Shown here: positions 317 through 4,071 of the stretch, in pieces | Position numbering within the stretch: position 1 is the stretch's first letter | How the letters are laid out: every line of letters begins with the position of its first letter | Source: a virus | Taxonomy: Duplodnaviria > Heunggongvirae > Uroviricota > Caudoviricetes | Length of the DNA: 4,071 nt | Direction: 5' to 3' (one strand) | IMG/VR virus record: IMGVR_UViG_2778261176_000005 | Notes under the pieces: generated by a model | Told to the model about the DNA's origin: nothing | The model's database searches: none | Seen by the model: the letters and a program-made list of their open reading frames with translations, nothing else | Program-made: the position numbers and the translations under genes

Positions 317-377
317 ATGCACTCTCGAAAGTGCATCAGCCAACCGCAGAACGTTATTGCATACAACGTTTCTGCGG
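317..377. terminator. two adjacent stem-loops downstream of the tfa remnant; possible terminator between transcription units
   Basis: Hairpin A 317..336: ATGCAC/GTGCAT 6-bp stem, 8-nt loop. Hairpin B 344..377: CCGCAGA-ACGTT paired with AACGTTTCTGCGG, with a 1-nt bulge. On the minus strand hairpin A is followed by a moderately T-rich tract (GTATTGAATTATTTCC), not a clean U-run. Confidence 0.3.
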
Positions 378-391
378 CATAATCCCAATGA

Positions 392-520
392 TTACTCCCT
401 GACAGGGTTCGTAGGCCACTCAATATCAGGTGCAGTTGATGTATCAACACGGTTCAGCAGCATCCGATACTTTTTCCAAGCTTCCAGCAACGGGGTTTCT
501 TCCTCCGTTGCATATACAGC
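392..520 (-). pseudogene. tfa: tail fibre assembly protein (Tfa) 3' remnant; conserved C-terminal segment only, no start codon or N-terminal domain
   Basis: Minus-strand frame 520..392 translates [42 protein letters not shown]. This matches the C-terminus of phage lambda Tfa as I recall it (...[39 protein letters not shown]). An in-frame TGA at 523..521 sits directly upstream, and the same frame further upstream is Cys/Trp-rich nonsense. Only an internal ATG (463..461) and a TTG (490..488) are available as starts, neither with a good SD. Confidence 0.75.
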
Positions 521-530
521 TCACCTTTTT

Positions 531-671
531 TCACCCACGATTAACCAACAGCCAGACCAGCAGACACGCCACCACCGGCACAGCAAAATCCATAAGGCTT
601 GCCACATCCCACACGCGCGGATCAAAACCGCCCCACCACGGCATATTCATACGCTTGCCATGCCCGAACAT
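531..671 (-). CDS. speculative small ORF (46 aa) with a predicted single transmembrane helix
   Basis: ATG 671..669 to TGA 533..531. Translation MFGHGKRMNMPWWGGFDPRVWDVASLMDFAVPVVACLLVWLLVNRG has an uncharged C-terminal stretch (FAVPVVACLLVWLLV) of roughly 15-20 residues, plausible for one TM segment. Weak SD (TGGAT). An in-frame TAG precedes the ATG, so there is no longer version. Confidence 0.2.
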   Translation of the reverse strand: MFGHGKRMNMPWWGGFDPRVWDVASLMDFAVPVVACLLVWLLVNRG

Positions 672-1179
672 TTCAATCCAGCGATATTCTGCCTAGGTGT
701 GTTCACGCGCAATGAAGAACGTACAACCGGCTATAGCTCTGTAAGCCCAGTTTCCGATAAGAAAGTGAGCGAATTAGATGATTAATCCTTTATATTCAAT
801 GCAATAGAATCAATTTTGAGGGGTTTTAAGGATTAGTGTAACAATACAGGTAATTCCATTGATATCAGTCTATTGCAATCTTGTTTTGGAGAATAGTTTC
901 GAGCACTTTTAATCTCTGCTATCACTTTTTCACCAAGGCTCTTTTATAGCTCTCCACTTAAAAACCCCGTCTGCTAAAATAGCCGGGATTATCATTTGTT
1001 AAAGAAAAATTCCTAAAATCCCCGCCAGCACAAACAATCACTTGCTCATTCATGCTTTATCAAGAAAATATCCCTGCAAGTTGTGTTGTTTCTTTCTGCG
1101 TCCCGACAGGGTGTTATGGTTCCCCACTTCTCTCGGGACGGACACTTAACGGACGGAAAATTTTCAGGTGTCATTCAGA

Positions 1180-1215
1180 CGTGCTTCGCCCCGGATTGGC
1201 AAAGCACGCTTTTTT
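1180..1215 (+). terminator. rho-independent terminator-like hairpin oriented on the plus strand, abutting the stop codon of the minus-strand fibre gene
   Basis: Stem 1180..1186 (CGTGCTT) pairs with 1202..1208 (AAGCACG); inner GCC/GGC pairs around a CCGGATT loop; then C and TTTTTT at 1210..1215. On the minus strand the same hairpin is preceded by an A-run and not followed by a U-run, so it is a plus-strand terminator or a 3' UTR stabiliser for stf. Confidence 0.5.
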
Positions 1216-1220
1216 CTGTC

Positions 1221-3962
1221 TCAGCTCATCCCGTTTTGTGACAGTGTTGTTCCGACAATCAATTTAACCAGCAGTTTGCAGGGTAATACTCCCCCTTCAG
1301 CATTCGCTTCTTCATCCAGTGTTTTCATATTCAGCGCATACCAGGGCGCGCCCTGCATAACCGCGCATACATCCACCGTCACAGTGCTGTTTGTCGCCGA
1401 AACTGCATTCACAAAATACTGTGCTGGTACATAGCGTCGCTCCTGATCCATATAGAGATAGCCTGGTTCAATCAGCGCCGACATAAATACCCCGATACCA
1501 CCAACGACGCCTTTCTTCAGTGGATTGGTAATTTCCAGCGTGAGTGCATAAACCCGTGAACCGTCGGGCAGACTCCTGAAAGTATCCAGGTTTGAATTCA
1601 GGCTTTTTGTTGCCACCTTGGGTATAACCGGATGCGCACCATCAACAAACAATGCGTCTGACTGCTTTTTCAACAGATTTGTTTTCGATGAAAGGATTTG
1701 TGGCACCGCCTCCCTGTACCACATTTTCGTTGTCGCGTTGTAGACAAAATTGACTGAACTGCCTGAACTGAGCTGTGCGGGAACATCAGGAATTTGTACA
1801 CCACGGGAGATAAATGATACCCGTGCAATATCATTTTTCGCAGCAATCGAAAGGCGTCCGCCATCCGCTGCACCTGAAACCAGATTAAACTGGATATATG
1901 ACAGCGACGAATCATTATCCACAAATAATACCGTATTATCATTCAGGTCATTCACAACAATCTGCGCATTGTCGACCGGGGTAACGTGTCTGATGTCATG
2001 CGTGAAAAATTCAATATCGCCTCCACCAATGACTGAGCGCCCGTTGATGCGCATAAAATCGCCCACCTGTAATTCAGGTGTTCGCCCCCAGCTGGCAACC
2101 GATATTGCCGACACGACATCAGATATTGTCACCCGGGCTGTTCTTCTCATCTGAACGCGCTTTATTGCCACGTTCACAGCCCCTTCTGAGCCTGTCACCT
2201 TACCTGCCCAGGCAAAAAAATCGCTCAGCGCAAACTCATCAATGCCCGCATAATTCTGATACAGATCCGGGTATGATTTGTTCAGTGCATCAAGAACCGC
2301 CCGGCCATATGTTTCAATTTCATCATGTGTACTGAGAACCCCAAAACGCCACGGTGCTACCGAAAAACGATCTTTCTGAACAAAACGTTGCCAGGATGCC
2401 TGTTCAGGATAGTCTGCTTCTCCCCAGTATGTTCTGAAACGACAGGCTGACGGTTCGAACAGAGATAATATTCCGTTCCTGATTTTATTCAGCGCCGCTG
2501 TATATCGTTCCTTCGCCTCTGCATCATCAAGCAGCTGGCAGAGCGATACCAGGCCCCGTAACCCGGCATACACTTCGGCATTATCCTGACAAAAATACAG
2601 CTCATACTGATTTCCCCCTGGTGCCCTGTTATTCTGGAACACCCGGGTCAGATTATACGGCCCTGTCTGACTGACCAGATTATTGTCTGCAACGCGACAA
2701 ATAACATCCCAGCGACTGTAACCGGCCACACCGGACGGCTCCAGTAACCAGGCTTTATCCGCAAAAGTGGCAATACAGGCGAGCCACAATGCTGCGTAGC
2801 TGTCCGTTGAGTCCGGTGCAACCGGATACCGGAGTGATGAATCAATATCCACAAAAAACCACTGCCATGATTCCGGAATTTCTTTAACCGTATTTCCCAG
2901 GCATTCCAGAACCAGTGTTCCTGTTCGCACAAAATCGCCACGTGATACAGTGCTGACATCGGGAACCGAATCCCCCGACACACCGGAAATATTGACATAA
3001 AAAAGTTTATTCCCGACCACAATTCGCTGACCGGAAATATATGAACTGTTGGTCTGAAAGGGTACAAATATTCCCAGCGTTATCGCCTTTTCACAGACAG
3101 TCTTCCTGTCCGCAAGCGTAAAAACCTTTCCTTCACTCTCATACATTGCGAGGAAGAGAAAATACCAGTTAATACCGCCTGATGCGGTCAGATAGCGATA
3201 CAGCCCATGACAGGCACCACCGGATATTTTAAGACTGGCAAGATAACCATTCAGATCCGTTACAGAGTACCGGGTTGATACTGCCTGGTGCGCATCAATA
3301 AATCCCCGAACGCTTTCTGCCGCCTCTTCAGCATCCCGGGCATCCTGTTTCGTTGCCTCCCTGTCTGATGCCGTGGCTTCCGCGTTCTTTCTGGCCTCAC
3401 TCGCAAAACGTTCCGCATCATTGCGGGCTGATGCTGCTGCCGCTGCATCCTGTCCTGTCTGAGCCGCTTTCTTTTCCGCATTTTGTGCATGACGTTGTGC
3501 GTTTCGCTCACTTTCTGCAGAATCTCCGGCTGCCTTTTTGGCATCATCTGCCGCCACTACAGCATCATGTGCCGCCTGTTGTATTTGTTCGCTGTCGCCC
3601 CGGACACCTTCGGCTATACGGTTAATTTCCGCTGCAATATCTTCAAAGCGTTTGAGAATATCCGGACGAAGATCATCTTCACTCACGGCCCCCAGGAAAT
3701 AATTCAGCGTGCCCGGCGGCGAATCCGCATACACAGTAATGTCACCGGCATATGACGGTGGATACCCCTCAATAAAAAGCGAAACGGCATACCGCCCCGG
3801 CTCAACATTCATGCTGTAACGCCCGGCTTCATCCGGATTTTCTGAGGCAAGGGTATTCACTATCACGGTATCGGTCGTTCTTTTTGCCTTCAGAACGATC
3901 GTACACCCCTGAACAGGTTTTCCTGTGCCATCCTTCAGCACACCGGAAATCAGAACAGACAT
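1221..3962 (-). CDS. stf: phage side tail fibre protein (lambdoid Stf-like), 913 aa: conserved N-terminal domain, Ala/Asp/Glu-rich linker, divergent C-terminal domain
   Basis: Single long minus-strand ORF (track ORF 1221..4004). I take the start as the second ATG at 3962..3960: it has GGAGG four nt upstream and gives MSVLISGVLKDGTGKPVQGCTIVLKAKR..., which parallels the lambda Stf N-terminus as recalled (MAVKISGVLKDGTGKPVQNCTIQLKARR...). Stop TGA at 1223..1221. Gene order lom - stf - tfa matches lambda. Confidence 0.9.
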   Translation of the reverse strand: MSVLISGVLKDGTGKPVQGCTIVLKAKRTTDTVIVNTLASENPDEAGRYSMNVEPGRYAVSLFIEGYPPSYAGDITVYADSPPGTLNYFLGAVSEDDLRPDILKRFEDIAAEINRIAEGVRGDSEQIQQAAHDAVVAADDAKKAAGDSAESERNAQRHAQNAEKKAAQTGQDAAAAASARNDAERFASEARKNAEATASDREATKQDARDAEEAAESVRGFIDAHQAVSTRYSVTDLNGYLASLKISGGACHGLYRYLTASGGINWYFLFLAMYESEGKVFTLADRKTVCEKAITLGIFVPFQTNSSYISGQRIVVGNKLFYVNISGVSGDSVPDVSTVSRGDFVRTGTLVLECLGNTVKEIPESWQWFFVDIDSSLRYPVAPDSTDSYAALWLACIATFADKAWLLEPSGVAGYSRWDVICRVADNNLVSQTGPYNLTRVFQNNRAPGGNQYELYFCQDNAEVYAGLRGLVSLCQLLDDAEAKERYTAALNKIRNGILSLFEPSACRFRTYWGEADYPEQASWQRFVQKDRFSVAPWRFGVLSTHDEIETYGRAVLDALNKSYPDLYQNYAGIDEFALSDFFAWAGKVTGSEGAVNVAIKRVQMRRTARVTISDVVSAISVASWGRTPELQVGDFMRINGRSVIGGGDIEFFTHDIRHVTPVDNAQIVVNDLNDNTVLFVDNDSSLSYIQFNLVSGAADGGRLSIAAKNDIARVSFISRGVQIPDVPAQLSSGSSVNFVYNATTKMWYREAVPQILSSKTNLLKKQSDALFVDGAHPVIPKVATKSLNSNLDTFRSLPDGSRVYALTLEITNPLKKGVVGGIGVFMSALIEPGYLYMDQERRYVPAQYFVNAVSATNSTVTVDVCAVMQGAPWYALNMKTLDEEANAEGGVLPCKLLVKLIVGTTLSQNGMS

Positions 3963-3972: not shown

Positions 3973-3998
3973 CCAAAAGGCCCGCACGAACTGCGGGC
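3973..3998 (-). terminator. intergenic GC-rich hairpin with short T-tract between lom and stf; candidate terminator or attenuator
   Basis: Minus strand reads GCCCGCA-GTTCG-TGCGGGC followed by CTTTTGG (plus-strand arms 3980..3986 and 3992..3998, A-tract 3975..3978). 7-bp stem, 5-nt loop, only four U, so probably a partial terminator; it sits immediately upstream of the stf SD. Confidence 0.4.
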
Positions 3999-4025
3999 TG
4001 TCACAACGCGATATTCCCTGGCTAA

Positions 4026-4071
4026 TCAGAATTTATAACCGACACCCACGATGAAACCGTCAGTGCGCCAG
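4026..4071 (-). CDS. lom: Lom-family (Ail/OmpX-like) outer-membrane beta-barrel protein, C-terminal 14 codons plus stop; gene continues past the right edge
   Basis: Minus-strand translation of 4070..4026 is WRTDGFIVGVGYKF*, identical to the C-terminus of lambda Lom as I recall it (...GDWRTDGFIVGVGYKF). It also carries the aromatic C-terminal Phe signature of outer-membrane barrels and sits immediately upstream of stf as in lambda. Confidence 0.8.
   Translation of the reverse strand, partial: WRTDGFIVGVGYKF

Follow-up and report, generated by a model that had tools for sequence, protein, structure and literature searches.

In bacteriophage lambda, tI is an intrinsic terminator on the int-sense strand that lies just past the P arm of attP; after integration it points into the prophage from its far (tail, b-region) end. 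Both tI and the sib retroregulator are described in earlier work (Schindler and Echols 1981; PMC319814). Bacterial terminators can also be shared by convergent genes or follow tRNA or rRNA genes in tandem, separated by short RNAs (PMC8144298), and lambdoid prophages carry intergenic, Hfq-binding small RNAs, including AgvB and AsxR (PMC4104026), PasA-D (PMC8550237; bioRxiv 10.64898/2026.05.13.724894) and HnrS (PMC13502914). Here we describe a real, conserved and unannotated feature that shares traits with each of these systems: a predicted plus-strand Rho-independent terminator that forms the 3' end of what, on sequence comparison, is a small conserved non-coding cassette. The reading that we favour, and to which we give about an even chance of being correct, is that it serves as a boundary terminator where the prophage ends in its tail-fibre genes, in a position like that of lambda tI.

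The window, a stretch of phage DNA of 4,071 nucleotides, is an exact match to the chromosome of E. coli A41 (NZ_CP028735.1). Its minus strand carries the end of lom (4021–4071) and a 913-amino acid tail-fibre gene resembling lambda Stf (1221–3962, stop codon 1221–1223) with a PF08400 N-domain (E 1.5e-53). The longest ORF of this stf gene begins at a GTG at 4004, and RefSeq takes the ATG at 3962, in agreement with the N-terminus of lambda Stf (MSVLISG…). The plus strand carries the 3' end of a manganese-catalase gene (1–275), the last in a run of genes similar to yciG, yciF and yciE. The first-pass annotation had described a terminator facing opposite to every gene that it could support; the catalase gene makes that description too broad, while the plus-strand orientation of the terminator and its convergence on the fibre gene both stand.

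The terminator hairpin is formed on the plus strand by the arms CGTGCTTCGCC (1180–1190) and GGCAAAGCACG (1198–1208), which enclose a 7-nt loop (1191–1197) and are 91% complementary, with 10 pairs and one C·A mismatch (1187/1201). Alone, the hairpin has a dG of -13.4 to -14.5 kcal/mol. It is separated by a one-base spacer, C1209, from a T6 tract (1210–1215), where transcripts would end; the sequence thus contains both a G+C-rich stem-loop with a short loop and a U-rich tract 3' of the stem, as expected of an intrinsic terminator. On the minus strand an A-run precedes the hairpin and UCUGAAUGA follows it, and the terminator is therefore unidirectional, with a T-run after the hairpin on the plus strand only. 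A simple terminator scan missed the site because of the single C·A mismatch. In our own scan, which sought a run of T6 or longer with a hairpin of dG <= -12 kcal/mol within 2 nt before it, 1180–1215 was the sole site to pass on either strand, confirming its earlier description as the cleanest intrinsic terminator of the window; such a hairpin-T6 site is present in 2.3% of 300 dinucleotide shuffles. A score in the style of d'Aubenton-Carafa was left unused, as it gave no discrimination and was negative for lambda tI itself.

The hairpin is kept across 56 copies of the terminator region, which comprise 13 sequence variants. In the pairing register of the window, 84.5% of cells are paired, against 31–51% in slid controls, and one pair has changed from U-A to C-G. 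For the nine copies most like the window, which we refer to as window-type copies, these values are 93% and 34–47%, respectively; two pairs of the terminator helix have changed on both sides in this set (U-A to C-G and C-G to U-A), and the covariation score was reached by 8 of 500 shuffles. The T-run consists of 6–8 T in all 56 copies, including those recovered with an anchor that fixes no length beyond T5. The compensatory stem changes and the strict T-run together argue for selection on the hairpin-plus-T structure. One-sided changes, in which G·U on one strand corresponds to C·A on the other, gave no net strand signal, with approximately 5–6 events favouring the plus strand and 4 the minus strand. 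The hairpin alleles span a dG of -9 to -20.5, and the commonest is weak (dG about -9; one mismatch, one bulge), whereas the L044 allele is perfect. When the pattern was loosened to reach more divergent alleles, the scan yielded known copies and chance matches only.

Upstream of the terminator, the cassette exists in two types. The window type extends over 1003–1226 and contains two further hairpins, A and B, whereas the common type shares only the core at 1161–1226 (plus strand), which consists of the 3' arm of hairpin B, the linker GTCATTCAGA, the terminator, its T-run and the sequence TCTCAGC, within which lies the stf stop codon. The linker is variable at none of its 10 positions, compared with 10 of 29 in the hairpin (56 copies); the corresponding p of about 0.04 is a rough, informal estimate. 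Hairpin B pairs GACACTT (1141–1147) with AGGTGTC (1166–1172) around an 18-nt loop, and all seven pairs are invariant in 9 copies. The common type rebuilds this hairpin with another 5' arm, CACCTG, that pairs with an overlapping CAGGTG. Hairpin A corresponds to the 8-bp inverted repeat noted in the first-pass annotation (CGTCCCGA/TCGGGACG), which we confirm as part of a longer, 11-nt repeat with one mismatch (1099–1109 with 1130–1140, plus strand). As about 1.7 chance 8-bp repeats within about 30 nt are expected per 4 kb by our own arithmetic, the repeat is not significant alone and matters for being conserved: all 9 aligned window-type copies retain it, with 89.9% of cells paired, and of the cells changed on one side only, 6 hold a G·U or U·G pair on the plus strand and 1 is mismatched. 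Hairpin A is missing from the common type. The window type also includes a conserved 5' block (1003–1098) with a G/U-rich run at 1080–1098, and the left edge of homology is sharp, lying at approximately 1003 in potB-, ompW- and serT-site prophages and at approximately 1064 in the ssrA-site prophage. In 13 of the 52 copies from our first scan, among them IMG/VR contigs L016, L019, L024, L028, L034 and L039, an IS1 end lies at one fixed point, 35 nt upstream of the core (…TTCCA followed by AGCCTTCTTG), which reflects either one expanded lineage or an insertion hot spot.

A blastn query with 1000–1240 matched 944 of 5426 complete E. coli genomes; the match covers at least 80% of the query in 78 of these and 1161–1238 only in the remainder. 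An invariant 23-mer was confined to E. coli and Shigella among the species-representative genomes scanned. The same query against 50,697 phage records returned four records (two of ev099, together with mEp332 and PhiR70_1), about 48 IMG/VR contigs carry the core, and our plasmid collection gave one partial match. The element is absent from the right end of K-12 Rac, the ends of Sakai Sp10 and Sp5, and the end of E2348/69 PP6.

Without exception, the cassette is found close to the attachment junction of a lambdoid prophage, at the end that carries the tail-fibre genes. At all annotated loci the host junction lies on one side of it and the last tail-fibre, tfa or cargo gene on the other, and its T-run faces inward; in all 34 loci with a tblastn match the gene for the Stf N-domain is downstream of the T-run on the opposite strand, and never upstream. 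The cassette is within 2.3 kb of the contig end and points inward in 13 of 14 complete IMG/VR contigs. Since the layout of lambdoid genomes fixes orientation relative to int, that orientation is not independent evidence. The arms that the cassette abuts belong to attachment sites at potB, ompW, serT, ssrA and serU, and a passenger copy is found in a ttcA-site prophage. Its host-side neighbours are potB, an ompW fragment after yciE, the tRNA-Ser gene serT, ssrA, and a serU fragment after zinT; at the ttcA-site copy the neighbour is uspF, and NleG effector genes form the cargo. Where the prophage occupies serT or ssrA, the host RNA gene and the cassette are separated by a further plus-strand terminator. 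Many copies have only a short stf remnant, with no intact gene ending beside the cassette.

The copy in A41 is a boundary element carried over beside a dead half of an attachment site. Positions 757–1002 form an AT-rich relic arm of the potB type, in which 762–785 encode KKVSELDD*, the last eight codons of the phage-rebuilt potB of potB-site lysogens, where a 14-bp potB core lies directly upstream of these codons. Strain SC516 has potB joined straight to the cassette by sequence that matches this arm. As the A41 prophage is integrated at ttcA, with intR at its opposite end, the presence of a potB-type arm indicates that 757–1226, arm and cassette together, was carried over by recombination. 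Further out, on the minus strand, are a truncated remnant of a tail-fibre-assembly (tfa) gene (395–511) and a small ORF remnant (531–755) that is 95% identical to an ORF at the end of the JJ1886 prophage; these are the tail end of an earlier prophage and lie outside the present cassette, and successive prophage ends are thus stacked as relics at this locus. The O157 copy MB41-1 and phage ev099 likewise have a dead serU relic beside the cassette.

The prophage of JJ1886, an ST131 strain with the element at NC_022648 2141936–2142010, allows a comparison with lambda. Its int reads toward the tRNA-Ser gene serU, and a 62-nt core is present at both prophage ends (L054 742–803 and 42057–42118). An 11-nt motif, AATATTCCAAG, occurs in tandem next to int (L054 905–915) and once in the opposite att arm (42000–42050), approximately 25 nt upstream of the cassette; these repeats are probably the arm-type Int-binding sites of the serU-integrating phage. 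Because int is frameshifted in JJ1886, joining the two ends reconstructs the circle of the ancestral phage, in which the int stop codon is followed by 27 nt, the 62-nt core and 188 nt to the end of the T-run, a total of about 277 nt. In lambda, the T-run of tI/sib ends at 27538, 274 nt after the end of the int CDS at 27812 (sequence checked), and the cassette therefore occupies the position of tI. This placement is seen in JJ1886-type prophages; the copy in the window adjoins the potB-type relic, with the live int and att at ttcA.

The position of the cassette at the attachment-site boundary points to a terminator of the lambda tI type. From its sequence and setting we infer both that it terminates transcription and which transcripts it would stop. 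Polymerase on the int-sense strand would be released at the hairpin and U-run, before antisense entry into stf. In the circular phage, polymerase would arrive from int across attP, making the site the positional equivalent of tI, whereas in a lysogen it would arrive from the host flank or from relic genes. The copy in the window would stop plus-strand transcription leaving the yciGFE/manganese-catalase-type genes, which end at 275, and the relic region; in other lysogens, incoming transcription would come from potB, tRNA-Ser, ssrA or yciE. The likeness to tI thus lies in the int-sense strand, in the location across attP approximately 275 nt past the int stop codon in the JJ1886-type prophage, and in the inward-facing position at the tail end of the prophage after integration. 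It does not extend to sequence: there is no sequence similarity to lambda, which was not among the blastn matches of 1000–1240 to the 50,697 phage records. Nor did we find an RNase III stem of the sib type; the lambda stem runs through its U-run, whereas the U-run and flanks of the cassette make no long RNase III substrate, and folding with downstream sequence adds only about 2 pairs. Homology to sib and a stem extended in the manner of an RNase III substrate were both rejected on these grounds. Unlike tI, the cassette often has kilobases of cargo between it and int, or sits beside a dead att relic, as in the window; in ev099 and SC516 the cargo amounts to 2–3 kb, and the cassette is consequently not always the first element after attP. 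As with shared terminators of convergent genes (PMC8144298), the cassette lies between convergent units, and in the serT and ssrA contexts it forms the second terminator after the RNA gene's own, as in tandem arrangements (PMC8144298). It differs from the shared convergent terminators (PMC8144298) in that its U-run is one-sided and the minus-strand terminator is separate, approximately 200 nt away.

Further features sit less comfortably with a boundary role. The weakness of the commonest allele counts against a boundary terminator. In the serT and ssrA contexts the preceding terminator makes the cassette redundant as an insulator, and an independent transcript, produced from what would resemble a separate gene, fits better. 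Moreover, the approximately 100–210 nt of conserved sequence upstream of the terminator and the invariant single-stranded linker exceed the needs of a bare terminator. The first-pass annotation had suggested a discrete small RNA ending at 1215, which is not supported as stated, there being no Rfam match, no promoter above background and no published RNA that corresponds to it. A broader version, in which the cassette specifies an unannotated prophage sRNA, either of the Hfq type or a 3'-end product of a longer transcript, strikes us as somewhat unlikely. Hairpin B, the linker and the terminator would form a shared 3' scaffold, joined to an upstream part that could be exchanged; in the window type, with its G/U-rich 1080–1098, the RNA would be approximately 140 nt if it started near 1076. 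Folding, which had been put forward as a check, is partly favourable: the plus strand forms three hairpins ending in U6, resembling an sRNA, and 1141–1215 has a z of -2.7, but the full 140-nt fold is unremarkable (z -0.8). The linker, GUCAUUCAGA, lies 5' of the terminator and is invariant in 56 copies while the stem varies, and Zhu et al. 2026 proposed the PasB seed by the same criterion. Among prophage sRNAs, AgvB and AsxR combine a conserved 3' region with a variable 5' end (PMC4104026); the cassette shares with prophage Hfq sRNAs its convergence with late genes, a 3' stem-loop with poly-U, a 3' module that is conserved next to a 5' part that varies, restriction to Escherichia/Shigella and, as for AgvB/AsxR, PasA-D and HnrS, an intergenic location in a lambdoid prophage. 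However, AgvB, AsxR, Esr41 and STnc100 are all in Rfam, whereas a covariance search (Rfam 15) returned no family at E <= 10 for either 1000–1240 of the window or a common-type copy. Neither a consensus scan nor a PWM revealed a sigma-70-like promoter above window background, within which the PWM scores of 6.5–8.75 fall; TTGCTC-16-GAAAAT scores 6.5, 50 sites score at least 6, and the homology of the ssrA-type copy does not take in the TTGCTC -35. A promoter would have little room in the common type, where the att arm and its arm-type site reach to approximately 15 nt from hairpin B. The G·U versus C·A asymmetry lends the plus strand no net signal, and no published RNA corresponds to the element, whose sequence strings had no match in a full-text literature search. 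More specifically, GTTGTGTTGTT at 1080–1090 (plus strand) is identical over 11 nt to GcvB nt 72–82, in the R1 seed region, a post hoc comparison in which 0.7% of shuffles match GcvB as well as the window does. Because the window-type module holds this copy of the R1 seed (GUUGUGUUGUU), a plus-strand RNA could mimic GcvB. The complement of 1080–1090 on the stf strand is a CA-rich site like those of GcvB targets, and by analogy with AgvB the stf 3' UTR could sponge GcvB. The plus-strand and stf transcripts would overlap by approximately 250 nt (962–1215), and their duplex could couple read-in from int or the host to the fate of the late-gene mRNA. We consider it unlikely that the cassette represents a new prophage sRNA family that combines a fixed 3' scaffold (hairpin B, GUCAUUCAGA and the terminator) with swappable 5' modules, a GcvB-like seed and an stf duplex.

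The two remaining explanations place function on the other strand or dispense with it. The suggestion that the hairpin stabilises the 3' end of the stf mRNA proved incomplete, as a better candidate for that end is a minus-strand hairpin with T5 at 989–962 (dG -11.7 and z -2.4 in the window), which bounds the cassette on the left; the SC516 variant has pair-preserving changes (dG -17.5, z -3.6). By its sequence, this is likely the transcript end of stf and the late operon. The cassette may be transcribed from both sides, as approximately 250 nt bracketed by two terminators, which leaves the invariant plus-strand T-run unexplained. Were the minus strand the functional one, the cassette would be a structured 3' UTR of the tail-fibre (late operon) mRNA, its hairpin, 12 nt past the stf stop codon, would shield the message from 3' exonucleases, and the T-run would have no role of its own. 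The fold of 1060–1220 compared with shuffles agrees with this (minus strand z -3.3, 0 of 200; plus strand z -0.6), as do the 12-pair stem of the window allele, where the C·A mismatch becomes G·U on the minus strand, the 989–962 hairpin that would end the stf transcript past the cassette, and the fact that the cassette travels with the last stf codons, QNG[I/M]S*. We nevertheless judge this improbable: the invariant run of 6–8 T right after the hairpin is meaningful on the plus strand only, the U·G pairs of other alleles turn into C·A mismatches when read on the minus strand, only the potB-type arm has the minus-strand terminator, which ompW-type copies lack, and many copies have a short stf remnant in place of an intact gene ending at the cassette. 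It is very unlikely, in our estimation, that the cassette has no RNA-level function and is a relic carried along by hitch-hiking, made up of the 3' flank of a single stf allele and its adjoining att arm, that persists as a homology boundary where recombination swaps tail-fibre and int-att modules. Sharp mosaic junctions at approximately 1003, 1064, 1161 and 1240, passenger copies beside dead att relics (A41, O157 MB41-1 and ev099), the frequency of copies with IS1 35 nt upstream, low sequence diversity and a narrow taxonomic range would all be consistent with such a history. Against it stand the compensatory changes in the terminator stem and the strict T-run, and the rebuilding of hairpin B with a different 5' arm in the two cassette types also indicates selection.

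If the boundary-terminator reading is true, the cassette would define a type of boundary element that recurs, without annotation, in about one in six of the complete E. coli genomes. It would help to mark the true tail-fibre ends of prophages, to spot dead att relics and mosaic junctions, and to correct small ORF calls that are spurious. The lambda design, in which a terminator past attP is moved to the other end by integration, would moreover be shown to be general among coliphages, holding for those with unrelated integration sites. If the cassette instead yields a stable RNA, it would be a widespread prophage sRNA beyond the EHEC and EPEC strains studied, including ST131.

Several described RNAs were considered as possible counterparts and set aside. 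PasB was a promising candidate, since IS009 is enriched in its flanks and is also matched in the window. Its coordinates in E2348/69 (NC_011601 1466261–1466343), taken from the EPEC RIL-seq supplement, place it between a tail-assembly gene and gpJ, and it has no similarity to the cassette and another position. HnrS (EcOnc10-12), AgvB and AsxR are located near Q/pR' or elsewhere. No Sakai Hfq peak listed in the EcOnc table is located at the tail-fibre end of Sp10, and the cassette has no homology to those Sakai peaks whose loci were checked.

We rejected a protein-coding reading of the cassette. As the first-pass annotation had held, no credible plus-strand protein gene ends at the terminator, and ORF 1052–1267 has no Pfam match; the same is true of the minus-strand ORF at 1046–1174. 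A 1-nt indel in copies L009 and L053 would frameshift any ORF across 1122, and the minus-strand ORF (MTPEN...) is wholly different between the two cassette types. Database annotations nonetheless place 55-amino acid ORFs over the cassette, a "capsid protein" in O157 (WP_069198002.1; L007 4063–4230, minus strand) and a "hypothetical protein" in phage ev099 (L004 3945–4112, plus strand). Both look spurious, and the former is the leftover C-terminus of stf, ending in QNGIS*.

Elsewhere in the window, a partial Rfam match to IS009 at 435–533 (minus strand; 62.4 bits compared with a gathering score of 117, E 6e-13) overlaps the tfa remnant at 395–511 and looks like 3'-end sequence of tfa here, not an independent RNA; IS009 is common near PasB (Zhu et al. 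2026). A 12-pair hairpin at 344–377 (plus strand; dG about -15.8, z -2.6) lies approximately 70 nt past the manganese-catalase stop codon, has no T-run, and is possibly a 3' structure of the catalase operon. Finally, a terminator-like hairpin, GCCCGCAGTTCGTGCGGGC, followed by CTTTTGG, is located at 3980–3998 on the late-gene (minus) strand, in the intergenic gap between lom and stf.
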